Of a DNA stretch of 64,000 nt, positions 43,622-58,036 are shown one piece after another; the first letter of the stretch is position 1; each line of letters starts with the position of its first letter. A model generated the notes under the pieces. It worked only from the letters and a program-made list of their open reading frames with translations. It searched no databases and was not told the origin of the DNA. The DNA lies in the IMG/VR virus record IMGVR_UViG_3300007639_000002, positions 1 through 64,000 of that record. The stretch is one strand, 5' to 3'. The DNA is from a virus. The translations under genes were made by a program, and so were the position numbers.

Positions 43622-43639
43622 CTAACTAGTTTACTATGC

Positions 43640-44623: not shown

Positions 44624-44667
44624 ACGTCTAGTTTACATGTATACAACAGGTATACAAGTTCAATACA

Positions 44668-44683
44668 TGTTCCACGTGGAACA
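44668..44683. promoter_or_regulatory. parS: parS site 1
   Basis: Perfect palindrome TGTTCCACGTGGAACA. Confidence 0.75.
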
Positions 44684-44685
44684 AT

Positions 44686-44985
44686 TTAGTCTTCTTCATG
44701 AACCATAATTGGTATTTTTTCAATACCTAAATCACGAGCCACAATTGCTCTATGGTGACCATCTATTAATAGGTTTTTTTTAAGAGACACACTAAGTGGA
44801 ACTTTAATACCTTCATTTTTAATGGAATCATGGAGTGAGTTATATCGTTCACTATCGTGTTGAAAGATATTTTCAACGTCTAATTCCCCAATTGTGTAAT
44901 CTTTGCCAGAAGGGTCATCAATTTGCATATCCCTAGAAATGAGACCACGCAGTTGCTCTTGATTAATGTGTTCGTGTGCTGCCAT
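44686..44985 (-). CDS. Stand-alone ParB/Srx N-terminal-domain protein
   Basis: SIKNEGIKVPL...LIDGHHR...ARDLGIEKIP; 99 aa, no room for an HTH. Confidence 0.8.
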   Translation of the reverse strand: MAAHEHINQEQLRGLISRDMQIDDPSGKDYTIGELDVENIFQHDSERYNSLHDSIKNEGIKVPLSVSLKKNLLIDGHHRAIVARDLGIEKIPIMVHEED

Positions 44986-45163
44986 ATACCTAGTATAGGG
45001 CTATCTAGGCGTTGTTTTTTGGTTAGCGGATTTTTGGAATAGGGCTATTGGGCCACTGGGCTGCTAGAGGGGGGTGGGTCCTGCCGGGCCACCCAGTAGT
45101 AGCGGCGACTTAACCATGGGGGGTATCCACAGTATAGCACCGCTACCTTACTGGTCACGAATC

Positions 45164-45358
45164 CTAGGCGAGTAACAACTCCCTGTGCTTCCGAGCCACT
45201 TCCATGTCTAACAGGTTCACCAGTGCATGAGCCAGTACGTCGTACTCGGCTTCACGCCCTGCTAAGACTGCGCCAATATCATCCACCATTGTCTGCATCA
45301 CATCTACCAATGCGACTGCTGTAACCATTTGCTTGCTGAGTTGTTTTGTTGTTGTCAT
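45164..45358 (-). CDS. Cassette protein (MTTTK), leaderless
   Basis: ATG at predicted +1; stop is the repeat TAG. Confidence 0.75.
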   Translation of the reverse strand: MTTTKQLSKQMVTAVALVDVMQTMVDDIGAVLAGREAEYDVLAHALVNLLDMEVARKHRELLLA

Positions 45359-45397
45359 ACTGCCACCTTACCATGTCCCTGCTGGGAGTCACGATTC

Positions 45398-45589
45398 CTA
45401 GATTTCCTCTTCCCAGTCTGAGTTCAGGCGCTCCAATGCCCGCAGTTCCTCCGCCACATCAAATGCAGTAGCGCATGGTGTGCAGAAGTATAACTCAGTG
45501 AGCCACCTGTCCGAGTACATAGGCTCGTGCGTTGGGCTAGGTATTGGAGCGTTGCATTCAACGCAGGTGTTTTGTGTTGTCGTTGTCAT
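45398..45589 (-). CDS. Cassette protein with CxxC...CxxC, leaderless
   Basis: CVEC and CTPC; ATG at +1; repeat TAG stop. Confidence 0.75.
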   Translation of the reverse strand: MTTTTQNTCVECNAPIPSPTHEPMYSDRWLTELYFCTPCATAFDVAEELRALERLNSDWEEEI

Positions 45590-45631
45590 GCTTCCAACCT
45601 ATCACATGACCCTCTCAGGTCACGATTCCTA

Positions 45632-45651
45632 CATAATGAGAATGATTCTCA
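45632..45651. promoter_or_regulatory. Fur/Zur-like box
   Basis: 7-1-7 palindrome TGAGAATgATTCTCA; 15/19 match to GATAATGATAATCATTATC. Confidence 0.5.
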
Positions 45652-45656
45652 ACTAA

Positions 45657-45672
45657 TGTTCCACGTGGAACA
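45657..45672. promoter_or_regulatory. parS: parS site 2
   Basis: TGTTCCACGTGGAACA within a 20-bp palindrome. Confidence 0.75.
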
Positions 45673-45692
45673 TTCCTAGAGTTGGGGCTATA

Positions 45693-45708
45693 TGTTCCAC
45701 GTGGAACA
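45693..45708. promoter_or_regulatory. parS: parS site 3
   Basis: TGTTCCACGTGGAACA. Confidence 0.75.
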
Positions 45709-45766
45709 TTGGTGCGGAGCGTAGGCAGGTATCCACCTACCCACACCCACCCAGCCATTGCTGGCA

Positions 45767-45928
45767 CTACTTGGGAGCACATGATGCCCAGTGCTCCAAT
45801 GCCCACTCTGCCCATGCGTTATGATCCAATGCCCACATATCCAGCGTGACAGTCTCGTCACAATAAACGCAGTGAGCGTTCAAGTACTGTGGGCATTCCA
45901 TGTCGTTGATGTTCTGTGTTGTTGTCAT
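45767..45928 (-). CDS. Cassette protein (53 aa, Cys/His/Trp-rich), leaderless
   Basis: Hand-translated MTTTQNINDMECPQYLNAHCVYC...EHWASCAPK. Confidence 0.7.
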   Translation of the reverse strand: MTTTQNINDMECPQYLNAHCVYCDETVTLDMWALDHNAWAEWALEHWASCAPK

Positions 45929-45967
45929 GTAACCAACCTATCATCTAGTGGCTCTGAGTCACGATTC

Positions 45968-46135
45968 CTAGTCCCTGTATTCTTGGGCGTTGTTGTAGTG
46001 ATATAGAGCCATGGCGTACTGTTGCTTTTTCAGGTCTGCGTATTTGCAAACCTCTGCCCTGTCTGCGTATTTCTTGGACAATCCCATGTAGTAGTCGTAT
46101 TGCTCTTTATTGGTAAATTGTTTTGTTGTTGTCAT
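45968..46135 (-). CDS. Cassette protein (55 aa), leaderless
   Basis: Hand-translated MTTTKQFTNKEQYDYY...; repeat TAG stop. Confidence 0.7.
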   Translation of the reverse strand: MTTTKQFTNKEQYDYYMGLSKKYADRAEVCKYADLKKQQYAMALYHYNNAQEYRD

Positions 46136-46174
46136 GTCTCCAACCTATCACGCCACCCACGTGAGTGACGAATC

Positions 46175-46369
46175 CTAGATAAATATATTCTGATACTCAT
46201 TTTGCGCATAGTACTCAGTGCGTAACCTTTCAGCACTGTTCATGAACCTACCCTCAGCCCGTGTTAGACCATAGGTGTACTCATGTGCCTTTAATGCATT
46301 CATCAGGTCTTCCAAAGCCTGCATTATTTTGATCTCAGTATCTGATAGTTGCTGTTGCGTTGTTGTCAT
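46175..46369 (-). CDS. Cassette protein, leaderless
   Basis: MTTTQ; repeat TAG stop. Confidence 0.75.
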   Translation of the reverse strand: MTTTQQQLSDTEIKIMQALEDLMNALKAHEYTYGLTRAEGRFMNSAERLRTEYYAQNEYQNIFI

Positions 46370-46408
46370 GCTTCCACCTTACCCTAGGGTCACCTTTGGT
46401 GACGATTC

Positions 46409-46576
46409 CTAGAACCTTGTATCTGTCACTGGGCGAACCTGCATATCCCTATGGCTGAGCCAATAGACGTTGCAGGCTTGGCGACTGCCGACCATGACTA
46501 CACACTTACGTGAAGAGTCATAGACTTCATGTGCTTTAGTGCTGGGCTTTACCTTTTTCATTTGCGTTGTTGTCAT
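46409..46576 (-). CDS. Cassette protein (55 aa), leaderless
   Basis: Hand-translated MTTTQMKKVKPS...; repeat TAG stop. Confidence 0.7.
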   Translation of the reverse strand: MTTTQMKKVKPSTKAHEVYDSSRKCVVMVGSRQACNVYWLSHRDMQVRPVTDTRF

Positions 46577-46615
46577 ATCCACACCTTATCAGGTCACCCT
46601 GCTGGGTCACGAATC

Positions 46616-46864
46616 CTACTTCAGCATTGCTTTCAGTTCAGCCTTCACCACACGTGCCGTGTCTCCACGCCATGCAGATGCATTGCTGAGGAAATAGGCG
46701 ACGATATCCCTAGCGGAGTCGTACCCATATGAGCCACTGATAGAGTCCAGCGAACGCATAGCGTCTAGGTACGGCACAGCACCAAAGTATGGCTTTTTCC
46801 AGTCTGCACTAATGTCACGTGCAATGGTTGATATTGGGCGATGTTGTTGTTTTGTTGTTGTCAT
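46616..46864 (-). CDS. Cassette protein, leaderless
   Basis: RPISTIARDI...AVPYLDAM...YFLSNA..WRG; repeat TAG stop. Confidence 0.8.
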   Translation of the reverse strand: MTTTKQQHRPISTIARDISADWKKPYFGAVPYLDAMRSLDSISGSYGYDSARDIVAYFLSNASAWRGDTARVVKAELKAMLK

Positions 46865-46903
46865 GTAATTACCTTATCAGTTAGTCGGGTTAGGTCACGA
46901 ATC

Positions 46904-47113
46904 CTAGATGTTATGTCCATCTAGTTCAGTTATTTTGGCGATTGCCAAAGATAGTACAGGCTTCAGCCCTAAGAGGAACATCCACACGCCGATCATCTCA
47001 GTGCGTAGTTCATCATCCTTTAGGGCATCTTCCACGGCAGTGTTCCATTCACCGAGCCTGCCCAGTACTTCTAATGTTGATGGTAGTGGTTTGGTTGTTG
47101 TTGTCGTTGTCAT
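46904..47113 (-). CDS. Cassette protein (MTTTTTTK), leaderless
   Basis: ATG 47113 fits the +1 spacing; repeat TAG stop. Confidence 0.75.
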   Translation of the reverse strand: MTTTTTTKPLPSTLEVLGRLGEWNTAVEDALKDDELRTEMIGVWMFLLGLKPVLSLAIAKITELDGHNI

Positions 47114-47122
47114 GTTCACACC

Positions 47123-47314
47123 TTACCAGCCTGCTGGCTCTAGTGACGATTCCTGATGCTCTTCTACTAGGTTGTCGTAGCACCATGTGCATACGTCAGT
47201 TCCCCAGTCTTCAGGGTCAAATCCATTATGCCCATCCACGATAGGGATCAGCATAGAAGATGCTCCACACCGTTCGCAGGCTCCGATATAAATGTTGTTG
47301 TTGTTGTCGTTCAT
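47123..47314 (-). CDS. Cassette protein with CxxC...CxxC, leaderless
   Basis: CERC and CTWC; reads through a TAG-to-CAG repeat variant to the TAA of the next -10 box. Confidence 0.7.
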   Translation of the reverse strand: MNDNNNNIYIGACERCGASSMLIPIVDGHNGFDPEDWGTDVCTWCYDNLVEEHQESSLEPAGW

Positions 47315-47353
47315 GTAATCACCTTACCACCTAGGAGCGTTAGGTCACGAATC

Positions 47354-47587
47354 CTAGATACCTTTCATATCGCAGATGTAATTGTGGCGAGCGTCAAAGT
47401 ACCAGTCAGACTCTTGAAAGGCTTGCTCGTCGCTGGGCGTTCCATCCTGTGCATATGCCATGAACTCTGCCCAGTTATCTAGGTAGTCGTCAGAGCCAAT
47501 GTAGGACTCTTCCCATTCTTCTATATCTTCAGGTGTTACGACTAATTTAGCCGATTCCATGTCTTCCACAGATGTGTATGTGAACAC
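47354..47587 (-). CDS. Acidic cassette protein (leadered, GGAGG SD)
   Basis: CA-rich 5' UTR, SD and GTG; repeat TAG stop. Confidence 0.75.
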   Translation of the reverse strand: MFTYTSVEDMESAKLVVTPEDIEEWEESYIGSDDYLDNWAEFMAYAQDGTPSDEQAFQESDWYFDARHNYICDMKGI

Positions 47588-47646
47588 TATGTGCCTCCGT
47601 TGTTGTCGTTGTTGATAGTTCTAACTTAGCACGTCACCCTGCTGGG

Positions 47647-47826
47647 TCACGAATCCTGCCGTGTGTCCATGTTCCACAGAATGCACTTAGCATCTTTTAA
47701 GATGTTGTATAGATTCATCTCTTCCCATGTCATGCCATAGTACCCATCACGCTGGGTCAAATCAGCCATGAACATAGTAAGCGTTTCATACATTTCAGTG
47801 TTGGTTATTTTCTTTGCTGTTTTCAT
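47647..47826 (-). CDS. Cassette protein (59 aa), leaderless
   Basis: Hand-translated MKTAKKITNTEMY...; stops at the in-frame TGA inside the repeat. Confidence 0.7.
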   Translation of the reverse strand: MKTAKKITNTEMYETLTMFMADLTQRDGYYGMTWEEMNLYNILKDAKCILWNMDTRQDS

Positions 47827-47865
47827 ATCTTCACCTTACCATGTAGTCGGGTTGAGTCACGATTC

Positions 47866-47942
47866 CTAGTGGGTATATTTGGTTAGATTAGCCTCAATAT
47901 ACCAGTGAGGTGCTTTCCCCGCTAACCATGCGGGTTTTCGTT
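47866..47942 (-). ncRNA. Candidate double-pseudoknot small RNA cassette
   Basis: Own repeat promoter, no credible ORF; two hairpins whose loops (UGGUUA, GGUAUAU) pair with adjacent 3' tail segments (UAACCA, AUAUACC). Confidence 0.65.
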
Positions 47943-47981
47943 AATCCCAACTTACCATGATGGAGTGTTGGGTTACGATTC

Positions 47982-48050
47982 CTAATAAAGGATGGCATTC
48001 AATGCCTTAGGAGGTGTCATGAATGCCACCCTCTATTAGTTGTCGTCGTT
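47982..48050 (-). ncRNA. Candidate hairpin sRNA displaying anti-Shine-Dalgarno CACCUCCU
   Basis: Own repeat promoter; 20-bp stem with two G-U pairs on - strand; 18-nt loop. Confidence 0.6.
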
Positions 48051-48089
48051 AATCCCAACCTACCACGTGGGTAGGCTGGGTCACGATTC

Positions 48090-48296
48090 CTAGAGGCTGA
48101 TATGCGCTCCTGAGAGCAAGTCTTCAACCTCATTGCGGATGGTGTCGCTGATGCTGTCACTGAAAGATGAGTTATCAGTGAAATCGTATTCATGGAGGAT
48201 GTCGTTAATGCGATCCTCCAAAGCATCTACTACTTGGTTCATTACCTTGTCACTGATTGCATTGACAAGTTGATTAAGCAATTCTTCCATGGTCAT
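48090..48296 (-). CDS. Acidic cassette protein (leadered; also the C-terminal part of a 141-aa fusion)
   Basis: Own promoter at 48354, CA-rich leader, GAAAGG SD; repeat TAG stop. Confidence 0.7.
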   Translation of the reverse strand: MTMEELLNQLVNAISDKVMNQVVDALEDRINDILHEYDFTDNSSFSDSISDTIRNEVEDLLSGAHISL

Positions 48297-48515
48297 GTTG
48301 TTAGTGCCTTTCGTTGTTGTTGATGAGTTCACTTTATCAGGTGGTTGTACTGAGTCACGATTCCTAGACTCCATGGCGATTTGCTCTTCATGATACTCAC
48401 GTAATAACTCTACGGTATAGTTCATGTAGATACCCTTTGCCATGGCATCTTCTACTTCAGTCTTTGCCATTAGTAAATGGAACACTTTAAGTTGTTGTTG
48501 CGTTTCGTTGTTCAT
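48090..48515 (-). CDS. Leaderless cassette protein fused in frame through the 48354 repeat
   Basis: ATG 48515 at +1; repeat read as SRNRDS. Confidence 0.55.
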   Translation of the reverse strand: MNNETQQQLKVFHLLMAKTEVEDAMAKGIYMNYTVELLREYHEEQIAMESRNRDSVQPPDKVNSSTTTKGTNNMTMEELLNQLVNAISDKVMNQVVDALEDRINDILHEYDFTDNSSFSDSISDTIRNEVEDLLSGAHISL

Positions 48516-48554
48516 GTAAGCACCTTATCAGGTGACATTGTTAGGTCACGATTC

Positions 48555-48782
48555 CTAGCGAATCTCTACAACCCTGCCTAAGCAAGTGAGTAAGTTGCCT
48601 ACGCTCGTAGTGGTTTCCCCTGCCGTGGTGGTGATAACTGCATCATCACCCACTACTTCTACAGAGATAACCCTTGTAATGATTGGGCGTGAGACAGGTG
48701 TCCATGATGGAATGACGATAAACTCGCCTTCTATAATTTGGTCAGCCCGTACTGTGAATGCTGGTTGTTGTTTCGTTGTCAT
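48555..48782 (-). CDS. Cassette protein (small beta-rich), leaderless
   Basis: ATG at +1; repeat TAG stop. Confidence 0.75.
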   Translation of the reverse strand: MTTKQQPAFTVRADQIIEGEFIVIPSWTPVSRPIITRVISVEVVGDDAVITTTAGETTTSVGNLLTCLGRVVEIR

Positions 48783-48821
48783 GGTTTCACCTTATCATGT
48801 TGAGTTGGTAGGTCACGAATC

Positions 48822-49133
48822 CTAGTATGACCTGAACACGTAACCATCAAGTTCCCACACGTCACCACCTAGTTCTAGGTCACGTGCGAATGACTCATAG
48901 TCAAAGTATCCAGTTTTGACTGCTTCAGAAAAGATATCGTCTGCCAACTCTTCAGCGTACTCACGTACTGATGTGACTGCTACGTAGGCATCCTCAAATG
49001 CTGATACTTCGCTGTCGTAGTCTTTGGTTATGCCAAGGTTCCAGCAGTAGATGGCAAAGGCTTGCTCGTCTATGTTGTTGTCTTCTGCTACCTGTGCAAT
49101 TTCTGCGTTGCTGTATTTATGTGTTGTTTCCAT
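48822..49133 (-). CDS. ardA: ArdA-like antirestriction (DNA mimic) protein, leaderless
   Basis: Acidic; FEDAY, EYAEEL, YFDYESFARDL and GYVFR match the ArdA C-terminal signature. Confidence 0.78.
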   Translation of the reverse strand: METTHKYSNAEIAQVAEDNNIDEQAFAIYCWNLGITKDYDSEVSAFEDAYVAVTSVREYAEELADDIFSEAVKTGYFDYESFARDLELGGDVWELDGYVFRSY

Positions 49134-49172
49134 ACCTGTACCTTACCCTCTAGTAGTTGTTAGTCACGAATC

Positions 49173-49358
49173 CTAGAACGATGTTCCTACCAGCGCATTA
49201 TCAAATGTGCGATAGATTACAATGCTCCTAGTTTGGTCTATAGATTCCCACATGGATGCCAACCACGTTGGCAGGTGTGCATCATGCAGTGTGCGTATGT
49301 ACGTTTGGGGGTCACCCTCTAGTTGATATTGTACTTCTACTTTTTTCGTTGTTGTCAT
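49173..49358 (-). CDS. Cassette protein, leaderless
   Basis: MTTTKK; repeat TAG stop. Confidence 0.75.
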   Translation of the reverse strand: MTTTKKVEVQYQLEGDPQTYIRTLHDAHLPTWLASMWESIDQTRSIVIYRTFDNALVGTSF

Positions 49359-49397
49359 GGTTTCACCTTAGCATTCTGAGTTAGTGGGTCACGAATC

Positions 49398-49652
49398 CTA
49401 CAACTCAAAAGAATGCAGTATCTTAGACGTTTCGTCTTGTGAATGTTTATTGGATGTCCAAAAGTGAACCTCTGTACGTGTGTAGATACCACCATGGCAC
49501 ACCATGCCTAGGCGATTACGTGCTTCTTTTTCTGCACGTTCTTCATTGTCGTAGTCTGCACCACCTACGTAGTCTTCGTTGTTGTCCCAAAAGTGTACTG
49601 TGTACCCTGAAGCAATATCTTGATTCATGTTGTTGCCTTTCGTTGTTGTCAT
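49398..49652 (-). CDS. Cassette protein (leaderless ATG plus in-frame SD-led ATG at 49628)
   Basis: ATGACAACAACGAAAGGCAACAACATG. Confidence 0.75.
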   Translation of the reverse strand: MTTTKGNNMNQDIASGYTVHFWDNNEDYVGGADYDNEERAEKEARNRLGMVCHGGIYTRTEVHFWTSNKHSQDETSKILHSFEL

Positions 49653-49682
49653 GTAATCAACTTACCACGTGGTGGTGTTAGG

Positions 49683-50048
49683 TCACGAATGCAGTTCCCG
49701 CATTTTGACCAACCCAACCTGATAATTGGCGGTATTGGTCAAGTTAAGCCACCAGCCAGTGACGAATCCATTTTCGTATTCGTCACAGATATGCTCGTTG
49801 TATTCGCCATGCTCGGTGAGAAGATCACCCAGTAGTTCGTTGATGGATTCCCCTGCCCATTCACCTGATAGTGGTGATGGTGGCATGAAATCGTCGGGGA
49901 GATCACACTCGTCATATAGGCGAAGGAACTCTACATATGTTTCCTGCGTAGTGTTACCGTCAAAGATCCATGATGATGCATTCTTGCCAGCAACTAATCC
50001 ACGAATGTATGCATCATATGCATCAGTTGTTTTGGTTGTTGTGTCCAT
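49683..50048 (-). CDS. Acidic cassette protein, leaderless
   Basis: PSPLSGEWAGES; ends at the TGA in the repeat. Confidence 0.75.
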   Translation of the reverse strand: MDTTTKTTDAYDAYIRGLVAGKNASSWIFDGNTTQETYVEFLRLYDECDLPDDFMPPSPLSGEWAGESINELLGDLLTEHGEYNEHICDEYENGFVTGWWLNLTNTANYQVGLVKMRELHS

Positions 50049-50057
50049 GTGAGTACC

Positions 50058-50282
50058 TTACCCTGCCTTGATGTCCAGTGACGAATCCTGCCATACTTCT
50101 TTGTCTTCTTTAAGTTTGTATGCCCATTTGTATGCTGTGTTCATTGCTGTCCACATTTGGCTGTATGGGGAATTGAATGAGTCTTCTTGATGAGCGTGTA
50201 AGTTGTAGCACACTGATTCCAGTGCATCTATCGCATTAAATAGTTCTTCAAGTGTCATGTCTTCGTTGATGTCGTGTTTCAT
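50058..50282 (-). CDS. Cassette protein, leaderless
   Basis: ATG at +1; reads through a CAG repeat variant. Confidence 0.7.
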   Translation of the reverse strand: MKHDINEDMTLEELFNAIDALESVCYNLHAHQEDSFNSPYSQMWTAMNTAYKWAYKLKEDKEVWQDSSLDIKAG

Positions 50283-50321
50283 GTTGTCACCTTATCATTT
50301 TGTTGTTGGTAGTCACGAATC

Positions 50322-50831
50322 CTATCCATACACCACCTCACCAAAGAGAATGAATTGCAGAATGGAGTCTGCTGTGAGAGCGTCGTACCAACCATCAAAG
50401 GCATCATCATCGTTGAAATAGATGGCACGTAAGCATTGCAACGCAGTCTTACCCAGTTGTCCATGGTCAGGTACGTTCTCCTGTGAGAACTCACCTGTGC
50501 CTACCTTGACGATAAAATCTATAACCATTTGCTCGTTGATAGGGTAAGCCTTGCCATAGGTGAACCATTCATCCCAGTCGTTTATTCCTTCTTGAAAACC
50601 ATGTTCTTTGTTGGCATACAGTGGGTGGGTTTTGTCCACCTCTGTTACTTCTTCTTCTACGTAGATGGTTGCGCTACAGTACTGATCAGTGTTACCCAAT
50701 TCGTACTCTCCGTTTGCACTTCCCCATTTGTAGTTCTTGCGAATCGCCCAGTACCCACATCCTAGTTCCAAAGCATCTGTAAGAATTGTGCAGGCTCCGT
50801 ATGTCATTTGTTGTTTATTTGCTGTTGTCAT
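50322..50831 (-). CDS. Acidic cassette protein, leaderless
   Basis: GCGYWA and DALTADSILQFILFGEVVYG motifs; repeat TAG stop. Confidence 0.8.
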   Translation of the reverse strand: MTTANKQQMTYGACTILTDALELGCGYWAIRKNYKWGSANGEYELGNTDQYCSATIYVEEEVTEVDKTHPLYANKEHGFQEGINDWDEWFTYGKAYPINEQMVIDFIVKVGTGEFSQENVPDHGQLGKTALQCLRAIYFNDDDAFDGWYDALTADSILQFILFGEVVYG

Positions 50832-50870
50832 GTCATCAACTTATCAGGTGAGTGTGCTGAGTCACGAATC

Positions 50871-51329
50871 CTACCAACTACTTTGATAGGAGAACTGGTA
50901 CTCTTCGTCAAGAGACAGCGCATTTTTAATGATGGAAATTGAGTACTCTAGGCTCTCAAAGTACCACTCGTCGTACTCAATGTTGCCAAAGAAGAAACCA
51001 CTAGCGGTGGGTAACAGGTCATCGGCAAGGCTATGGTCACCTAGAACCTGTTCGCAGACGTTCATTAACTCCGCAAGTTTCTCACGTGACACGTATGCAT
51101 CTTGGCATTCATCTACGCCATCCTGTACGTTGTCCACGAACCACTGGTGGATGGCGTTGGCTTTACGCCAGTAGCCCACCATGCACCGTACTGTGATAGA
51201 TGGATAGTCAGTGTCTAGTTCAATGTCTAATACTTTCCTGACTGCATGGTACGCTTCATTAACGTCGTCACCGTAGTGTGATGCTGGTGAGAGGTAGCGT
51301 TCTGCTTTGAGGTACTGATCTAATCCCAT
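50871..51329 (-). CDS. Phage protein of MGLDQY...YWRKAN...YQSSW type, leadered
   Basis: Recognisable recurring phage motif set; CA-rich leader with AAAGGA SD. Confidence 0.8.
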   Translation of the reverse strand: MGLDQYLKAERYLSPASHYGDDVNEAYHAVRKVLDIELDTDYPSITVRCMVGYWRKANAIHQWFVDNVQDGVDECQDAYVSREKLAELMNVCEQVLGDHSLADDLLPTASGFFFGNIEYDEWYFESLEYSISIIKNALSLDEEYQFSYQSSW

Positions 51330-51402
51330 GTTGTTATCCTTTTGTTGTTGGTTGTTGTTACTGAAGTTACTTTATCATGTTGTTGTTATGAGTGGCGAAT
51401 CC

Positions 51403-51475
51403 TGTGGAATACACCGATTTCTACGACTAGGGGAAACAACAACGAAACCCTAGGAGCAAACCGATGTACTCCACA
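51403..51475 (-). ncRNA. Candidate hairpin RNA with loop antisense to the cassette (ACA)n starts
   Basis: 18-bp stem with three G-U pairs, inner 6-bp stem, loop UUUCGUUGUUGUUUC. Confidence 0.55.
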
Positions 51476-51479
51476 TGAC

Positions 51480-51674
51480 TCACCACTCATGTTCTTGTAT
51501 AGATAATATCAGCACTAATGCGTTAAACATCAACAATATGCTAAGAAAACCTAAGAGCAAATTACCTGTATTTTCCATACCACCCATGAACCCAATGCTC
51601 AGGATGATAAGAGGCAGAATACAGCGTTTCTTTGTACGTGTCCAGCGATACCAGTTGGTCACCCTGATCCTCAT
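51480..51674 (-). CDS. Two-TM membrane protein
   Basis: Hydrophobic helices; ATGA coupling. Confidence 0.65.
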   Translation of the reverse strand: MRIRVTNWYRWTRTKKRCILPLIILSIGFMGGMENTGNLLLGFLSILLMFNALVLILSIQEHEW

Positions 51675-51919
51675 AACTCTTCCCCGTTTTCGTCAGTGAA
51701 GATCAGGTCAGAGATATCTGTCTGATGACCCCAGCCACATGAAAAATCATCAGTCTTGGCAAGATGTTCAATGTGCTGAACAACATCGTCTAACGTGATG
51801 TCCATGTCTTCATCTATGTCACTATTGAGAGTCCTGATGTCTTTGATTACGTCGTACACGTCATAAGTTATTACTTTTGTAACGTTGATGTACTTGGGTA
51901 GTTCTGTTGTTTCGTTCAT
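51671..51919 (-). CDS. Acidic cassette protein, leaderless
   Basis: ATG 51919 fits the +1 spacing. Confidence 0.75.
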   Translation of the reverse strand: MNETTELPKYINVTKVITYDVYDVIKDIRTLNSDIDEDMDITLDDVVQHIEHLAKTDDFSCGWGHQTDISDLIFTDENGEEL

Positions 51920-51958
51920 ATCCATACCTTATCTTGTTGTTAGTGTTAGTCACGAATC

Positions 51959-52360
51959 CTAGATATTGGCTTCCCAGTCAATATCAGAGTCATAAATGTC
52001 AATGCCAAAACGTGAGTCCCAACGCCATACTTCCTCAAAGGCAACGGTATCTGCACGAACCATTACCCTGCCACGAATGAAACCCTCTTCAGGATTAGTC
52101 TCGTCTGCGTTCCATTGTTTCACGTACTCACCTACACACTCGTACACGTAGCCCTGTAGGGCATCTACGTGCTGTGGGTTATCTAAACACCATGTGTTTT
52201 CTATCACGTCTACGAGCATCCCCATGACCATTAGTTTTGGGTTGCTTTCGCACATATTTATGATGCGATTGAGCATACGCTCTATTTCGCTTGCTGGTAA
52301 TACACCATCCCAGTACGCCATGGTTTCTTGCTCGTAGTACAAGCCTTCACAGCCATCCAT
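51959..52360 (-). CDS. Acidic hypothetical protein
   Basis: TAATG coupling; repeat TAG stop. Confidence 0.7.
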   Translation of the reverse strand: MDGCEGLYYEQETMAYWDGVLPASEIERMLNRIINMCESNPKLMVMGMLVDVIENTWCLDNPQHVDALQGYVYECVGEYVKQWNADETNPEEGFIRGRVMVRADTVAFEEVWRWDSRFGIDIYDSDIDWEANI

Positions 52361-52809
52361 TATGCTTCCAAATCTTCTAGTGGGTACAACACCTTACGTG
52401 CGTACACTTCTTCAATAGCGTCAAGAAGAACCTCATGGTAGTTGCTCCATGCTTTTTCATTGGAAATAGCAAACGCTGAAATAATCTCTAGTGTTTCTTT
52501 ATCAACATCAAAAGCCCATACAACAGAGTCTTTGATATCGGGATCGGGAGTACCCCAATGAACTTCTAATTCTTCACGAATAGAGGCAGGTGAGTAACAA
52601 ACGCTGTTGCTGTAGTTCACGTCACCCCATCCTGTATGGTCACCCATAAACTTCAATGAGATGCCATGCTTACGTGCAATGTTAGATATTTCTTCGTCAG
52701 AAAATGCTTCTAAGGCTGACTCTTCTGATGTAAGGTCATCAGTATCAACGATATAGCAGTTGTCTGCATTAACAATAGTTCCTGATTGTGCGTCAATAAG
52801 TAATTTCAT
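52360..52809 (-). CDS. Acidic cassette protein, leaderless
   Basis: TAAGGT-N6-ATG. Confidence 0.75.
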   Translation of the reverse strand: MKLLIDAQSGTIVNADNCYIVDTDDLTSEESALEAFSDEEISNIARKHGISLKFMGDHTGWGDVNYSNSVCYSPASIREELEVHWGTPDPDIKDSVVWAFDVDKETLEIISAFAISNEKAWSNYHEVLLDAIEEVYARKVLYPLEDLEA

Positions 52810-52825
52810 AGTTGTACCTTAGCCT

Positions 52826-53068
52826 TCAGAGGCTGTTACTCACGAATCCTAGTTTGTCAAGGATAGCGTCACGTACCCATTCAATATCAGGACAAATCTC
52901 ACATACATCGTACTGATTGCATATTTCTGCCCATGCATCTTTGGTAAGTACTTCATAATCATCATCGTCATAAAGGCTTGATGCCCATTCGTATGAGTAG
53001 ATGTCACAACAGATGTCGTCGTCATCTTTTAAGTTTGCGATAATCTCTTTTAAGGTTGATACCTTCAT
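52826..53068 (-). CDS. Acidic hypothetical protein
   Basis: AGAGGA SD; reads through a repeat. Confidence 0.7.
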   Translation of the reverse strand: MKVSTLKEIIANLKDDDDICCDIYSYEWASSLYDDDDYEVLTKDAWAEICNQYDVCEICPDIEWVRDAILDKLGFVSNSL

Positions 53069-53205
53069 GTTGTTTCCTCTATTAGTTTTTCTAGTTTGTT
53101 AATGAGTTCTAGCATTTCATCTGTCAATGGACTGCACCACGTTGTCTTAACGTTACGTAGTTCTGTCAATAGCAGGTGTAAGCCAAAATCTAATTGCTGT
53201 GTCAT
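53065..53205 (-). CDS. Cassette protein (46 aa)
   Basis: Hand-translated MTQQLDFGLHLLLTELRNVK...; short AGAGG leader from promoter 53247. Confidence 0.6.
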   Translation of the reverse strand: MTQQLDFGLHLLLTELRNVKTTWCSPLTDEMLELINKLEKLIEETT

Positions 53206-53483
53206 TGTGTTACCTCTACATTCACTATATTATGAACAGAGCCTGAGTCACGAATCCTAGAGAACGTGCTACCTTTTGTCGGGTCTGTGCGGATGAAATA
53301 GAATGAGTCTGCCCACTGATGGATATCGTCGGCAATGTCTTCATTCATGGCGACTACCTGCCCATGCTCATGGTCAATATAGACTGCCAGTTCACCGTCT
53401 TCTGTTATATACAATCCGATATACCAATCGCCCATCATTATCTGTGCGGAGTTATCGGTTTGCTCAATGTAGTTGTTACTCAT
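53202..53483 (-). CDS. Hypothetical protein
   Basis: ATGA coupling; reads through repeat 53247. Confidence 0.65.
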   Translation of the reverse strand: MSNNYIEQTDNSAQIMMGDWYIGLYITEDGELAVYIDHEHGQVVAMNEDIADDIHQWADSFYFIRTDPTKGSTFSRIRDSGSVHNIVNVEVTQ

Positions 53484-53725
53484 AAACAGAACCCATTACA
53501 ACGTGGGAATCCGCAGGCTGGGCAGTAAGACTCTTCTTCTTCTTCTTCTTCGTCTTTTGTGATGCCAAAGATGGTATAACCAGCCTCAACCAAAAGGTCA
53601 GCAACTAGGTCTAATGACTCACCATCGGTGTACTCGTACTCTAGGTCTTTGGGATTAGAACCTTCAACACGCTTTTCTAAGATGTTGATGATTTCTTGAA
53701 TGAGTTCGTCGTTTGCTGTTGTCAT
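53480..53725 (-). CDS. Acidic cassette protein with C-terminal Cys cluster, leaderless
   Basis: MTTAN; CPACGFPRCNGFC. Confidence 0.75.
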   Translation of the reverse strand: MTTANDELIQEIINILEKRVEGSNPKDLEYEYTDGESLDLVADLLVEAGYTIFGITKDEEEEEEESYCPACGFPRCNGFCL

Positions 53726-53734
53726 ATCATCAAC

Positions 53735-54016
53735 TTACCATACTGGTGGTGCTAGGTCAGGATTCCTGAGAGAAGAGGTATTTGGGATTACGTCACAGTT
53801 CATTAAATAAATGGCGTTGCTGAGTAGTGATGAAAGTTCATCTTCATTGTCAATGTACTCCCCGTCACCAAGATAAGCAACAGACCATTCATGTGTGTCG
53901 TTGTGCTGTACTGTGCCGTCAGAGAAATGCTCTTCCTCAGCGTTAGTATCCCATTCCCACTTGTTGGTGGATGAATCGTATGAGACTATGAAATAGTGTG
54001 TATGGTTTCCGTTCAT
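53735..54016 (-). CDS. Acidic hypothetical protein
   Basis: Start re-assigned to the SD-led ATG 54016. Confidence 0.65.
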   Translation of the reverse strand: MNGNHTHYFIVSYDSSTNKWEWDTNAEEEHFSDGTVQHNDTHEWSVAYLGDGEYIDNEDELSSLLSNAIYLMNCDVIPNTSSLRNPDLAPPVW

Positions 54017-54174
54017 TGTGTTACTTCCTCTATGTCTGTTGTGTTCCATGTTTCTTGCTCGTCTACACACCATGACTCGTTGCTGTCAAAGAGTTGTTTA
54101 GCCTGTTCAATGCTGTCGGCATCTACTTCGTGGCGGTAGTGAGTTACTTTTTCGTATGTGAGTGTGTACTTCAT
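54013..54174 (-). CDS. Small acidic protein (EVDADSIEQA type)
   Basis: Start re-assigned to ATG 54174; similar to neighbour 54171-54365. Confidence 0.6.
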   Translation of the reverse strand: MKYTLTYEKVTHYRHEVDADSIEQAKQLFDSNESWCVDEQETWNTTDIEEVTQ

Positions 54175-54365
54175 GCTGGTTCTTCCTCTTCTACATCTTC
54201 TACATCCCATGGAGTGTTCCACTCACGAAAGCCCCACATATCTTTTGACTCTAAATCGTCATCTGTGAACTTATCGTAAGCCTCTAGCGCACCCTCTTCT
54301 GAGTCTGCTTTAATTTCGTAGCAGTGGCTAATTACTTCATCTACACGTACTAAATAAGTTTTCAT
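54171..54365 (-). CDS. Small acidic protein (EIKADSEEGA type)
   Basis: GAAAGGA SD after CA-rich leader. Confidence 0.7.
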   Translation of the reverse strand: MKTYLVRVDEVISHCYEIKADSEEGALEAYDKFTDDDLESKDMWGFREWNTPWDVEDVEEEEPA

Positions 54366-54425
54366 GTTGTTCCTTTCGTTGTCGTTATTTACAACTTACC
54401 ATTAGAAGTGTGTTGGTCACGAATC

Positions 54426-54845
54426 CTACGTAGCGTCACTCATGACGAATGCCGATACACAAGCCTGCTCGTACTCTTCTGCATTGCGTACCCCATAGAA
54501 GAAATGGTCACCAGCACCTGTAGTAATCTCTGCCCACGTCATCAGTGAGTCTGTTGTGATGTCTCCATTGTCTAGGATCACTGTTCCCCACATAGCGTCG
54601 GCAACAGACATGACGTACTCTTTAATGTTTTCAGCCATATCAAAATGATCTACGTAGTCAATACGCCACCTGCCTTCACAGGGGAACCCACTCTCTAGGT
54701 CTACTGGCTCATTCTCATTGGCAGGTATAAACCCCACAAGTGTAATGTCATCTACATTCTCCACCAGCATTGCTAGGCGGTCATACTTTTGGTTAGAGTC
54801 CGATGGCACTACGCACCTCTTCTTCGCAGGCTTCACGTGCTTCAA
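54426..54845 (-). CDS. Acidic hypothetical protein (start uncertain, possibly 54770)
   Basis: Repeat TAG stop. Confidence 0.6.
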   Translation of the reverse strand: MKHVKPAKKRCVVPSDSNQKYDRLAMLVENVDDITLVGFIPANENEPVDLESGFPCEGRWRIDYVDHFDMAENIKEYVMSVADAMWGTVILDNGDITTDSLMTWAEITTGAGDHFFYGVRNAEEYEQACVSAFVMSDAT

Positions 54846-55392
54846 TGTATGCGTTGTCTACACGCTCCCACATGGTGTCCATGTCAGTATCCTCAAAACT
54901 ACCCTCTACCGTGATGTTCTCTGTGAACGAAGAATGCCATTGACCGTCATGGTATGAACTAGCACCTGCAAAGCCCATGCCCTGCTCGTCATAAGACAAA
55001 ACAAACTTAAAGTTTGGATACAACGTAGAGATATGCTCAAAAGCCTTTTCGGGTGGTGCCCATGCTGAGTTGAAGTAAAACGAACGGTAGCCGATGTCTT
55101 CGCCACCCATCTCAGTATCGTAATCACCCCACTTGGTTCCCCAGTTGTCACAACACCAGTCGTACCAATCCTTGTGACCGTACTTGGCGATGTTCGCCTC
55201 TTGTTGTATGCGATGCTCTTCTGCTTTATCTGCACCCATGAAGCCTGCCACTGTCTCGTATAGTTCTGTAGGGCAAGGGTAAAGAGAACGTATGATCTTT
55301 ATACGCCCGTCTACTGTGATGTCTTCTACAAACTTCTGTAGTGCTAATTCGTTACCCCATACGTAGAGGTTATTACTGCAATCGTTAGGCAT
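54793..55392 (-). CDS. DUF1281/YubB ferredoxin-like domain protein
   Basis: MPNxCxN, WYDWC.DNWGTKW, F.SAWAPP and YDEQGMGFAG motifs. Confidence 0.75.
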   Translation of the reverse strand: MPNDCSNNLYVWGNELALQKFVEDITVDGRIKIIRSLYPCPTELYETVAGFMGADKAEEHRIQQEANIAKYGHKDWYDWCCDNWGTKWGDYDTEMGGEDIGYRSFYFNSAWAPPEKAFEHISTLYPNFKFVLSYDEQGMGFAGASSYHDGQWHSSFTENITVEGSFEDTDMDTMWERVDNAYIEAREACEEEVRSAIGL

Positions 55393-55726
55393 TTACTTTC
55401 CAATCTTCTATGATGCGGTTATTTTTCATGTCTTTTACAAGTAGGCGTACCCACTCAGACGTATTTGCAAATCCAACTTCTTCGCCGTCGTCGTACTCAA
55501 CTGGGTACACGGTGACCATGATGTTTTCATCACCGAACTCATCGTTATAGTCCCATGCAAAAGTGTTGAAATCAAAAGCCAAATCCCCGATGATGATAGA
55601 TTCCCATGCATCTTCGTCGCCAGTGAACTTACGGCGAGAACGGTGATTCTTCTTAAGTATCTTGTAAGCGTGTTTCATTAACGCTTTTTTATTTTGTTTA
55701 ATGTCTTGAAGAGTTGATGTTTTCAT
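55385..55726 (-). CDS. Cassette protein, leaderless
   Basis: ATG at +1 of repeat 55756. Confidence 0.75.
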   Translation of the reverse strand: MKTSTLQDIKQNKKALMKHAYKILKKNHRSRRKFTGDEDAWESIIIGDLAFDFNTFAWDYNDEFGDENIMVTVYPVEYDDGEEVGFANTSEWVRLLVKDMKNNRIIEDWKVNA

Positions 55727-55765
55727 ATATGCACCTTATCATTGAGAGTGGTTGAGTCACGAATC

Positions 55766-55972
55766 CTATTGCTGTTCAATAAGAAAAGATGGGCGTTCAA
55801 TAGTTGAGTGAGTACCCTCTACGACTGTGATGCCGTAGTGAACTTCACCCCAACCTAAAATGTCTGTAGGGTCATTGCCTAACAATGCTTCGTACACAAG
55901 GTCTTGTGCCTGCATTTCGTTCTTGGCTTTGACAAAGTATGTTCCTGTTGCTGTTACTGTGTAGTAGTTCAT
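55766..55972 (-). CDS. Cassette protein, leaderless
   Basis: ATG at +1 of repeat 56002; repeat TAG stop. Confidence 0.75.
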   Translation of the reverse strand: MNYYTVTATGTYFVKAKNEMQAQDLVYEALLGNDPTDILGWGEVHYGITVVEGTHSTIERPSFLIEQQ

Positions 55973-56000
55973 ACCGCCACTTTAACTCACGTGATGGCTG

Positions 56001-56026
56001 AGTCACGAATCCTAGGAATCGTGACT
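56001..56026. promoter_or_regulatory. Back-to-back pair of repeat promoters sharing a central CTAG (divergence point)
   Basis: AGTCACGAATC-CTAG-GAATCGTGACT. Confidence 0.85.
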
Positions 56027-56071
56027 GAAGCAGGTAGAGTGCTAAGTTGTGTTTATGGAAAGGGACAACAC

Positions 56072-57961
56072 ATGAATGGTCTTACACCACGACAACAACG
56101 TGAAATACGTGAAGAACTAGACAAACGTCTTACGCCATTAGAAATGGTGAACTGCGTTGATGACTGGATTACGTTGAACGAACTTGACAGGCTTACCTTT
56201 AGGGGAGCCTCTGAGTTACTTGACTATATCGCACGGTTGCCTGTAGAGAGGACTCCTGCGTTAGCGCACGTTCCATCTACCGCCACCAAGATCATCGTCA
56301 ATAGCGCACGAGGGGTTTGTGCGTTATGTGACGAAATGGTAACGGCTGGGCAGGGGCATAAAGCCTTTGTCAATGGGGCATGGAGTGTTTATCATGCCGT
56401 AGACGTTTGCCCTGCCGTTACCGTGACTCCTGTCGTTACATATTCGTCGGGCTTGCGTAAGCAACTTGATGATTTTGTACAAACGTTAGACAAGACAGAG
56501 CCACCGATTCTCCCTGATGAATCATTATTTAATCTTTCTAATGCACACCAATTTGACATAGATTTTGATCTTGAATTACCGCTATTGGGGTACCAAAAGG
56601 CGGCGATTGAATATGCACGTCGTACTCACCGTACCCTTGTATGTCAAGACATGGGGTTGGGTAAAACGCCTATCGGCATTGCCCTGACTCATATTGCTCT
56701 TAATGAGGGTCACAAGGTGTTAGTGGTTGTACCGCCAAACCTTGTCTACCAATGGACATCGGAGTTCAAGAAGTTTGCTCCATGGATTAAGGTGGGCAGT
56801 GTACGTGGGCGTAAGGTCGGCAAGTTGCCCAAGACGGATGTACTCATTATCGGGGACTCCATCGTTGAGGCATGGCAGAATGTCCTTGCGGAAAAGTACA
56901 CCAGCATCATTGTTGATGAGGCACACCGCTTTAAGACTGAATCCAGCGGGCGTTCTAAGGCTCTGACTCGTATTGCATCGTTTGTTCCCAAGGATGGATA
57001 CTGCGTTCTGCTATCGGGAACCATCATTCCTAACCGCCCATCGGAGTTCATATCGCCACTGCGTATCATTGGCAGGCTTGAGCCTGTATTCGGTACTAAG
57101 AAGCAGTTTCAGATTAGGTACTGCGATTATCAGATGGTCAATGGGTTTCCTGTGACGGGTGGAGCCAGCAACGTGACAGAGTTAAATACTTTGTTGCGTA
57201 GCACGTGCTACACACGTACCAAGAAAGTAGATGTACTAGATGACCTGCCACCTAAGCGCAGGGCACAACTAGACGTAGAACTAACTGAGACATCCATGCG
57301 TAAGTACCGTAAGGCTGAGGAGGATTTCCTTGCCTTTGTGTACGAGAACTATGGGAACGATGCTTTTCTCGCTGCATCCAAAGCACCTGTGATTACACAG
57401 ATAAATAAACTCAGGCAACTACTGGGTGAGGCAAAGATAGATTCTGCAAAGGAGCACATACAGTCCTTACTGGACTCAGGTGAGCAGGTCATTGCCTTTG
57501 CGTACCACACCAATGTCCTGAAGACTCTCAAAGAGCATTTTGAGGATCAGGGCGTAGTGATGGTTGCCGGTGGTATGACCGCTGAGGCTAAAGACAAGGC
57601 TGTGCAGAAGTTCACTAGCGGTGAGGCACGACTGTTCTTAGGTCAGTACGAAGCAGCCTCAGTAGGTCTTAACCTACAGGTCGCCAGTCACGTGGTCATG
57701 GTTGAGATGCCATGGTCACCTGCTACTGGTTCACAGGCAGAAGACAGGGCATGGCGTTACGGCAACAAGAATGCTGTAGTGGCATGGTGGCTCACTGCCA
57801 TTGACCCCAATGCCCCCACCATTGACTCACGTATGTGGAGTCTCCTGAACGCAAAGGCAGAGACCATCTCAGCCTGTTTAGACGGGTGGGGAGAAGACAT
57901 GAAGGCTGAAGCAGGTAGCATTACCGCCCTGCTACTTCAAGACATGATGAGTGCTTCGTAG
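56072..57961 (+). CDS. SNF2-family (HARP/SMARCAL1-like) helicase
   Basis: YQ, DMGLGKT, DEAH, SGT, GLNL and QAEDRAWRYG motifs; start re-assigned to SD-led ATG 56072; stop is the repeat TAG. Confidence 0.9.
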   Translation: MNGLTPRQQREIREELDKRLTPLEMVNCVDDWITLNELDRLTFRGASELLDYIARLPVERTPALAHVPSTATKIIVNSARGVCALCDEMVTAGQGHKAFVNGAWSVYHAVDVCPAVTVTPVVTYSSGLRKQLDDFVQTLDKTEPPILPDESLFNLSNAHQFDIDFDLELPLLGYQKAAIEYARRTHRTLVCQDMGLGKTPIGIALTHIALNEGHKVLVVVPPNLVYQWTSEFKKFAPWIKVGSVRGRKVGKLPKTDVLIIGDSIVEAWQNVLAEKYTSIIVDEAHRFKTESSGRSKALTRIASFVPKDGYCVLLSGTIIPNRPSEFISPLRIIGRLEPVFGTKKQFQIRYCDYQMVNGFPVTGGASNVTELNTLLRSTCYTRTKKVDVLDDLPPKRRAQLDVELTETSMRKYRKAEEDFLAFVYENYGNDAFLAASKAPVITQINKLRQLLGEAKIDSAKEHIQSLLDSGEQVIAFAYHTNVLKTLKEHFEDQGVVMVAGGMTAEAKDKAVQKFTSGEARLFLGQYEAASVGLNLQVASHVVMVEMPWSPATGSQAEDRAWRYGNKNAVVAWWLTAIDPNAPTIDSRMWSLLNAKAETISACLDGWGEDMKAEAGSITALLLQDMMSAS

Positions 57962-58036
57962 GATTCGTGACTACGTACACCCCTGAGATAAAGTAACAAT
58001 AAGAAAGAGGCAAAGCCTCTCAACCAAAGGAAACAC

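Follow-up and report, generated by a model that had tools for sequence, protein, structure and literature searches.

How does a phage express, one after another, some 45 unrelated small genes between which almost no DNA is left, and what is the short repeat that stands at their joints? The locus in question lies at 45 to 58 kb of an IMG/VR virus record (IMGVR_UViG_3300007639_000002) of 79,143 bp that is 86% complete; the window, that is, the whole stretch analyzed here, comprises its bases 1 to 64000. The repeat is a 13-mer, TAGGAWTCGTSAC, followed at a fixed distance by a TANNNT hexamer and an A, and an earlier note on this DNA had proposed that it serves as stop codon, promoter, and recombination joint in an integron-like library of early or host-takeover genes. 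We consider it likely that the repeat is a strong, co-regulated class of leaderless promoters, one per gene, with a predicted transcription start site (TSS) at the A; this class would most likely be expressed early.

A 13-mer with promoter-like geometry

With at most one mismatch, the 13-mer occurs 30 times in the window, compared to 0.13 occurrences expected from dinucleotide-preserving shuffles; 28 copies are on the minus strand at 45154-56014 and 2 on the plus strand, at 56013 and 57959. When up to two mismatches were allowed and a TANNNT hexamer was required 17 nucleotides (nt) downstream (18 nt for the copy at 53768), 33 copies were found, which is the number given earlier, and all 33 point along the direction of the genes. 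A scan of the full 79,143-bp record showed that the motif is confined to the array region, with no copies outside 45 to 58 kb. A pattern scan of 185,579 species genomes returned single chance matches only, and the repeat therefore represents neither a host promoter family nor a prophage copy.

Each copy consists of the 13-mer, 17 nt that mostly end in TGN, the hexamer TAAGGT or a near variant of it, 6 nt, and a pyrimidine beside the A. The single departure is the copy at 53756-53768, whose spacer of 18 nt is 1 nt longer, and the spacing described in the earlier note was thus reproduced in full. Across the 32 aligned copies, the A at +1 never varies, nor do the first two bases (TA) and the last T of the hexamer. 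The 13-mer is asymmetric over its 13 bp and carries about 2 bits of information at 10 positions, and the spacer is low in information. This position-specific conservation fits a layout of -35 region, 17 nt, extended -10 region, and +1, in which YAGGAWT occupies positions -42 to -36 and CGTGAC the -35 position. Canonical TTGACA/TATAAT sites are fewer in the array region than in shuffles, and neither intrinsic terminators nor terminator-like hairpins were detected at the unit boundaries of the array. Two back-to-back copies at 56002-56025 form a perfect palindrome, from which the array runs leftward and the helicase, DUF932, and WhiB genes run rightward.

An ATG is located exactly at +1 in 24 copies. 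In 23 of these, all on the minus strand, it opens an open reading frame (ORF) of 53 to 169 amino acids (aa), the same number of starts as had been claimed; the 24th (plus strand, 56055) meets a stop after 6 codons, within the leader of the helicase gene, whose own ATG at 56072 has a Shine-Dalgarno (SD) sequence. Leaderless genes are frequent in two bacterial phyla, one of them the Actinobacteria, in which their signature is a TANNNT box about 12 nt ahead of the start codon (PMC3160421), and in the 23 units the first T of the hexamer lies exactly 12 nt ahead of the ATG, as in that signature. The first codons are rich in A and C (ATGACAACAAC-like; ACAACAAC...), and leaderless translation is enhanced by CA repeats right after the AUG (PMC9031893). 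First genes without an ATG at +1 have equally A/C-rich leaders of 12 to 33 nt with an SD sequence, and the genes that are not first in their unit have an SD sequence or a stop-start overlap.

To locate the stops, the longest open frame of at least 30 codons entering each motif was taken and its end position recorded. Nineteen of these frames end on the TAG of the motif and two on the TGA of CGTGAC (+9 in the motif), exactly the counts given before; two more, which had been missed, run on to the TAA within the next -10 hexamer (+30), and in both cases the motif starts with CAG. The TAG, TGA, and TAA (at -42, -33, and -12) are all in frame with the next ATG at +42 of the motif. Of the 29 upstream ORFs, 23 share the frame of the first triplet of the motif (binomial P = 5e-7), and the spacing between repeats is divisible by 3 in 22 of 30 cases. 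Genes stopped in frame leave no untranslated gap at all before the next promoter, and ORFs in other frames run into the promoter and at times beyond it. The T at -42 did not depend significantly on the frame of the upstream ORF (P = 0.16 and 1.0), and the T or C at this position is therefore not assignable to stop function alone. Overall, the anatomy appears to fit a repeat that combines a promoter, a leaderless start, and the stop of the preceding gene. The units are listed below in order from the palindrome (minus strand, -; plus strand, +).

45124-56014 (-): whole leftward array, with 31 promoter copies, about 45 small ORFs, and 2 to 3 non-coding units
55972-56014 (-): promoter 1; leaderless 68-aa ORF 55766-55972; forms the palindrome with the rightward promoter at 56013
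55726-55768 (-): promoter 2; leaderless 113-aa ORF, 199-aa ORF (DUF1281_C), and an ORF of about 120 to 139 aa ending on the TAG of motif 54428
54386-54428 (-): promoter 3; 21-nt A/C-rich SD leader; ORFs 54171-54365 and 53735-54073
53725-53768 (-): promoter 4 (CAGGAATCCTGAC, 18-nt spacer); leaderless 81-aa ORF, then a 93-aa ORF reading through promoter 5
53217-53259 (-): promoter 5; 12-nt SD leader; ORFs 53065-53205 and 52826-53068
52809-52851 (-): promoter 6; leaderless 149-aa ORF and coupled 133-aa ORF ending on the TAG of motif 51961
51919-51961 (-): promoter 7; leaderless 82-aa ORF, 64-aa ORF, and hairpin 51392-51480
51362-51404 (-): promoter 8 (CAGGATTCGCCAC); 33-nt SD leader; 152-aa ORF 50871-51329
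50831-50873 (-): promoter 9; leaderless 169-aa ORF, stop is the TAG of the next motif
50282-50324 (-): promoter 10; leaderless 74-aa ORF, stop is the TAA of the next -10 hexamer
50048-50090 (-): promoter 11 (CAG variant); leaderless 121-aa ORF, stop is the TGA within the next motif
49652-49694 (-): promoter 12 (degenerate, CTGCATTCGTGAC); leaderless 84-aa ORF; 119-nt deletion relative to L031
49358-49400 (-): promoter 13; leaderless 61-aa ORF
49133-49175 (-): promoter 14; leaderless 103-aa ArdA-like anti-restriction ORF 48822-49133
48782-48824 (-): promoter 15; leaderless 75-aa ORF
48515-48557 (-): promoter 16; leaderless 141-aa ORF reading through promoter 17; site of the 299-bp indel relative to L031
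48324-48366 (-): promoter 17, within the 141-aa ORF; SD leader to an in-frame ATG at 48296
48050-48092 (-): promoter 18; no ORF; 17-bp hairpin 47985-48036 with CACCUCCU in the loop
47942-47984 (-): promoter 19; predicted transcript of about 74 nt without an ORF
47826-47868 (-): promoter 20; leaderless 59-aa ORF, stop is the TGA in the next motif
47616-47658 (-): promoter 21 (CAG variant); SD leader, GTG start at 47587, 77-aa ORF
47314-47356 (-): promoter 22; leaderless 63-aa ORF, stop is the TAA of the next -10 hexamer
47113-47155 (-): promoter 23 (CAG variant); leaderless 69-aa ORF
46864-46906 (-): promoter 24; leaderless 82-aa ORF
46576-46618 (-): promoter 25; leaderless 55-aa ORF
46369-46411 (-): promoter 26; leaderless 64-aa ORF
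46135-46177 (-): promoter 27; leaderless 55-aa ORF
45928-45970 (-): promoter 28; leaderless 53-aa ORF, then parS-like palindromes at 45657 and 45693
45589-45631 (-): promoter 29; leaderless 63-aa ORF
45358-45400 (-): promoter 30; leaderless 64-aa ORF
45124-45166 (-): promoter 31, the last of the array; 139-nt non-coding stretch (kept in relatives), then ParB-like gene 44686-44985
56013-56055 (+): promoter 32; 17-nt SD leader to SNF2 helicase gene 56072-57961
57959-58001 (+): promoter 33; its TAG is the helicase stop; predicted to drive DUF932 (58037-59068) and WhiB (59065-59412)

The record also contains a second leaderless class, in which TAAACT, TATACT, or TAGAAT is followed by 6 nt and an ATG, with neither the 13-mer nor a clear -35 region. 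Its minus-strand starts are at 44623, 43621, 43005, 42681, 38483, 38050, 34765, and 22904. This class precedes larger genes, including the ParB-like gene, is also present in the distant relative G003 (see below), and probably represents middle or late promoters. Since it lacks the 13-mer, the 13-mer marks one separately regulated class.

Relatives, host, and cargo of the array

Related contigs were found by helicase searches and DNA pattern searches and are listed here with their identity to the window.

L010/L014: 99% over the right arm
L037: 99.8% over 43305-46665
L031: about 90% over 48507-55734
G002 and G001 (L026, L027): helicase 81% at the amino acid level
L018/L019, L020: helicase 75 to 77% at the amino acid level
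L016/L017: helicase 72% at the amino acid level

The geometry is kept in four related phage lineages, and the YAGGAWT half is common to all of them. In G002 (L026) the motif is YAGGAWTCGYCAC, present in 37 copies, of which 28 have an ATG at +1; L018 and L020 have 12 and 7 copies, respectively, with the motif TAGGATTTGGACA; and in L016/L017 two divergent copies of TAGGATTTGRATG stand at the helicase gene. The hexamer at the -35 position is near-invariant within a genome and differs by lineage (CGTGAC, CGYCAC, TGGACA, and TGRATG). The use of TAG and TAA stops recurs in G002 (L026), where 25 of 36 upstream frames are in the motif frame (P = 1e-5). In every lineage the stop of the helicase gene is the TAG of the next promoter, a junction that joins the immobile core genes helicase and DUF932, and the stop within the promoter therefore reflects how these phages generally pack their genes and does not identify mobile units. 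No array was found in G003 (complete, 94.9 kb; 66% identity in one flanking gene). The small-gene block of the Streptomyces phage BRock, the nearest cultured terminase relative, is SD led and has no common 13-mer, and a megablast search of the array against isolated phages gave no match. G003 has four palindromes, GTGACGTTCGTCACA, spaced 200 to 300 nt apart in a 900-nt non-coding stretch (L071 4633-5411), and their half-site, TTCGTCAC, corresponds to the 3' portion of the promoter motif of the G002 type.

A tail sheath, a portal, and a large terminase are encoded in the window, and the phage is therefore a myovirus; its nearest terminase matches are Streptomyces phages of the BRock group (47% identity). 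The record contains two WhiB-family genes, both above the Pfam cut-off and kept in relatives, and the one in the rightward operon of the 13-mer promoter is kept across all lineages. The WhiB family is restricted to Actinobacteria and their phages (PMC13013590). The two WhiB genes, together with an array cassette whose only homologues are in mycobacteriophages, place the host among the Actinobacteria. With a G+C content of 45%, and if the related contigs come from lakes and estuaries as presumed, the host probably belongs to a low-GC freshwater lineage. ARAGORN predicted no tRNA, and an Rfam search over 43.5 to 59.5 kb gave nothing above noise. Auxiliary genes on the minus strand encode a tryptophan-halogenase-like protein (25783-27270; PHROG 2928, E = 3e-109), a PhyH-family dioxygenase (39082-39867), and a methyltransferase (38498-39085).

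The earlier description of the cargo as mostly unrelated small proteins, together with a helicase, DUF932, and apparent non-coding RNAs, holds. No paralogues were found within the array, the rightward helicase is of the SNF2 type, and the DUF932 assignment was confirmed. Pfam and PHROGs recognized almost nothing in the array ORFs beyond a DUF1281_C domain and, in the 103-aa cassette at 48822-49133, an ArdA anti-restriction domain (38.5 bits, cut-off 27); this cassette is the best conserved one between lineages. A locus search with the ArdA-like protein alone gave no match. Across 17 ORFs orthologous between the window and L031, differences at codon positions 1, 2, and 3 numbered 105, 77, and 237, and this third-position excess shows that the array ORFs are coding and under purifying selection overall; in a few of them, non-synonymous changes exceed synonymous ones. 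An anti-restriction gene would fit immediate-early expression, and the cargo looks early or anti-defence. To this extent the ArdA-like gene and the coding ORFans suit the proposed early or host-takeover library; the integron-like mechanism attached to that proposal is not supported (see below).

Two units have no ORF and would give hairpin RNAs, with a strong hairpin in one of them. The promoter 18 unit (47985-48050, minus strand) would give a 66-nt transcript with a hairpin of about 17 bp (minimum free energy [MFE], -26.2 kcal/mol; z = -6.4) whose loop holds the 16S rRNA 3' end sequence; no relative spans the region. This hairpin could be a decoy for SD sequences or a plain terminator-like hairpin before the next promoter. 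The 141-aa ORF across promoter 17 (48090-48557, minus strand) represents either two fused units or long and short forms from nested promoters. The non-coding units of G002 (L026) and the conserved terminal leader showed no significant fold (z of about -1), with a covariation set of three sequences.

Three further non-coding features were observed. An 89-nt hairpin at 51392-51480 (minus strand; MFE, -36.9 kcal/mol; z = -6.3) lies between a stop codon and promoter 8 and differs from L031 by one base; the loop sequence, UUUCGUUGUUGUUUC, complements the 5' ends of the GAAACAACAACGAAA type in array mRNAs. A parS-like palindrome, TGTTCCACGTGGAACA, occurs in three perfect copies (44668-44683, 45657-45672, and 45693-45708; 0 expected by chance), two of them within an array unit and one after the 99-aa ParB N-terminal-domain gene (44686-44985). 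The non-coding stretch past the last array promoter is common to three lineages (window 44986-45130, minus strand; L027 19325-19460, minus strand; and L071 5376-5522, plus strand) and contains the blocks CCCCCCATGGTTA and two copies of ATAGCCCYAT, the second of which overlaps the TATACT -10 hexamer of the ParB-like gene. This stretch may be an RNA, an origin, or a motif of the second promoter class.

What reads the repeat, and what recombines at it

Under the reading that we favor, the RNA polymerase of the actinobacterial host would read the repeat. In the 23 copies in which the A at +1 is the A of an ATG, this would produce a leaderless mRNA translated from its 5' end, and the A/C-rich first codons would aid leaderless initiation at the RNA level. 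Because a leaderless ORF needs a transcript 5' end, each gene or short coupled group would need a promoter of its own, resulting in an array. Without terminators or spare DNA, an upstream ORF would enter the next promoter and end on its TAG, TGA, or TAA. The cargo would consist of fast-evolving small early genes, at least one of them ArdA-like, plus a few small RNAs. The 45 to 60 nt common to all units would be an occasional substrate for general homologous recombination, and such exchange could delete, insert, replace, or reorder whole units, resulting in a hyperplastic region.

Recombination was assessed by comparison with a single relative at about 90% identity, L031, from which the window has just two structural differences in 7.2 kb. 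At window promoter 48515-48557, an additional unit of 299 bp is present in L031, with a copy of one and the same promoter on either side, down to an identical 17-nt spacer, and the single copy in the window is a hybrid of both flanking promoters; this indel appears to match the expectation of homologous exchange between two promoter copies. Secondly, a stretch of 119 nt that codes for a 48-aa zinc-ribbon-like ORF in L031 is absent from the window; this deletion lies between two ACAAC-type repeats, and through it the leaderless start is fused in frame with the following gene. Individual units diverge by 1.8% to 33%. The 152-aa gene at 50871-51329 is replaced in L031 by an allele of 33% nucleotide divergence, with the replacement bounded downstream exactly at the TAGGA of the next motif and upstream about 30 nt into the ORF. 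Pairs of copies with similar spacers numbered 35, compared to 11.7 in a column-shuffled null (maximum, 23). Between lineages, only the helicase-proximal units are common, and the order is permuted with constant orientation and no inversions; L018 and L020 are 68% identical at the nucleotide level in the core and show no such identity in the array.

Several points weigh against the favored reading. Geometry, statistics, conservation, coding status, and the individual recombination events can be read directly from the sequence; promoter activity and strength, the TSS, the early timing, and the factor at the YAGGAWT half are deductions. The conserved block of 13 bp is longer than a sigma factor contact at -35 and its 3' half is lineage specific, and a further protein may therefore bind. 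The array part at 46.7 to 48.5 kb is supported by this record alone. Recombination at the repeat rests on three clear events, and a blind search for change-points of divergence found 21, of which 5 lie at -30 to +100 of a motif compared to 5.2 expected (P = 0.61). Constraint alone could give a conserved promoter and first 20 to 40 codons followed by a variable gene body. The idea that the repeat is a recombination joint thus stands only in part: the 299-bp indel, the allele swap at the motif, and the permuted order agree with it, whereas the distribution of change-points and the use of the same junction by immobile core genes do not. Recombination at the repeats seems to happen; its dominance is not demonstrable from one close relative.

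A lesser but serious possibility is that the 13-mer chiefly serves to bind a dedicated regulator, either an activator made up of WhiB and sigma-A region 4 or a monomeric stoperator-like repressor, which would add a switch to the promoter reading and not replace it. WhiB7 acts just upstream of -35. The information content of the asymmetric 13-bp block points toward such a regulator, as do the WhiB gene kept in the rightward operon of the same promoter and the presence of the half-site in the G003 palindromes. The 3' half, constant within a genome and different between lineages, behaves as in stoperator-repressor co-evolution (PMC6550527, PMC9283540). Every copy here, however, is joined to a -10 hexamer and a start codon, which is not true of stoperators, and the TGGACA of L018/L020, a 5/6 match to TTGACA at 17-nt spacing, fits plain sigma-A recognition. 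No regulator was identified, with no dedicated search for a repressor made. Wbl proteins other than WhiB7 are not known to act as sequence-specific readers, and the early promoters of T4 have a long conserved consensus without a dedicated factor.

More speculatively, several ideas might hold jointly: the array could be an integrase-free gene-capture and expression library with termination-reinitiation, in which the YAGGAWT half is read by a complex of phage WhiB and sigma-A. Any sequence in frame between two promoters would then gain a promoter, a leaderless start, and a stop; an in-frame stop 42 nt before the next AUG might let terminating 70S ribosomes re-initiate on read-through transcripts; and one stretch of DNA might function at once as about 30 monocistronic leaderless units and as a single long, coupled polycistron. 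If true, a phage Wbl protein would for the first time have a sequence-specific promoter class assigned to it.

It is improbable that a phage-specific sigma factor or a phage RNA polymerase reads the units, which would place them in a middle or late class. The hexamer at the -35 position in this phage is unlike TTGACA, and a record of this completeness leaves room for such a gene, but a six-frame search found no sigma factor region 4, and the -10 hexamer, the TG extension, and the spacing to +1 are standard for sigma-A. The ArdA-like and ORFan cargo and the position beside the helicase and replication genes suit early expression, and the ParB-like gene and the genes downstream of it use the other leaderless class (TAAACT or TATACT, no 13-mer).

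Least probable among the readings that we graded, and very unlikely, is a true mobile-cassette system with site-specific recombination at the 13-mer, as for integron cassettes at attC. The unit-sized indel with a duplicated boundary, the permuted order at constant orientation, and the boundary-embedded stop codons would suit it. Against this, tyrosine and serine recombinases (PF00589, PF00239) are absent from the 79-kb record, 86% of a complete genome, in a search for which control genomes were positive, so the earlier statement that the window has no integrase extends to the record. Eight units folded as single-stranded DNA gave no attC-like hairpins (MFE, -0.8 to -6.1 kcal/mol; z = -1.4 to +1.6). 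The L031 duplication comprises the whole promoter and its specific spacer, as in homologous exchange, and not a short core site; the second deletion lies away from the 13-mer; and the comparison between relatives, although it showed permuted order, gave breakpoints that are not generally enriched at promoters. The array is not an integron, because there is no recombinase and no single-stranded DNA fold and because every unit has its own (predicted) promoter; the integron analogy is thus not supported as a mechanism. The exchanges seen appear to fit ordinary homologous recombination, and the phage encodes RecA. We rejected an RNA-processing site that makes leaderless ends, since an invariant TANNNT at exactly 6 nt from the A is the geometry of a promoter, and since the predicted transcript begins downstream of the motif and does not include it.

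Comparison with known systems and implications

The closest described system appears to be the promoter-early stem-loops (PeSLs), mobile regulatory cassettes of T4-type phages that undergo modular shuffling in hyperplastic regions (PMC2839356, PMC4122927), and the array may be regarded as a compact leaderless variant of it. Both have a repeated strong early promoter (predicted in our case) before many small ORFans in a hyperplastic region, and in both, exchange would proceed by homologous recombination with no integrase. In PeSLs, the repeats flank indels and replacements between close relatives; the array has three clear events against one 90% relative, and no general enrichment of change-points at its promoters. 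Unlike the PeSLs, the array lacks a stem-loop terminator and an SD leader, with the ATG at +1 instead; the stop of the preceding gene lies inside the promoter, leaving no intergenic DNA; and the -35 region has a 13-bp motif, half of which is common across lineages. In addition, the host is an actinobacterium, and the phage, with its terminase nearest to that of BRock, is not shown to be of the T4 type.

The stoperators of Cluster A mycobacteriophages (PMC9283540, PMC6550527) are likewise asymmetric sites of 13 to 14 bp that number about 25 to 35 per genome and keep a single orientation with respect to transcription; they are found where genes meet, close to stop and start codons, have a lineage-specific consensus, and occur in phages of actinobacterial hosts. 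They are, however, genome-wide and promoter independent, whereas the copies described here are all in the 45- to 58-kb region and each has a -10 hexamer. Stoperators act by halting elongation once the immunity repressor of a temperate phage has bound them, and no integrase was found in the present record. With integrons the array shares an ordered, one-directional series of unrelated small genes with a repeated boundary element; it differs in having no IntI and no attC hairpin, in boundaries that are promoters, and in units that would be self-promoted instead of expressed from one Pc.

The terminal-redundancy module of SPO1 and the early regions of T4 and T5 also contain dense small early genes with several strong, similar promoters and with anti-host or anti-defence cargo. 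They use SD-led translation and multi-gene operons, and none is known to have a promoter per gene with a stop inside the promoter. A full-text literature search of partial coverage found no description of such an array in actinophages.

The array points to a phage gene organization in which, where leaderless translation is efficient, a promoter per gene replaces operons and promoter-embedded stops reduce intergenic DNA to nothing. It would extend the promoter-mediated modular shuffling of T4-type phages to actinophages. About 100 natural variants from four lineages of a 42-nt promoter and start element are at hand as possible expression parts for Actinobacteria, and they provide natural data on leaderless initiation, for example on the A/C-rich first codons. 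The lineage-specific -35 half, the conserved upstream half, and the WhiB genes together raise the question of promoter selection by Wbl proteins or other factors. Finally, the array is a pool of fast-evolving, predicted early genes, one of them ArdA-like, and as such a likely place for anti-defence functions.

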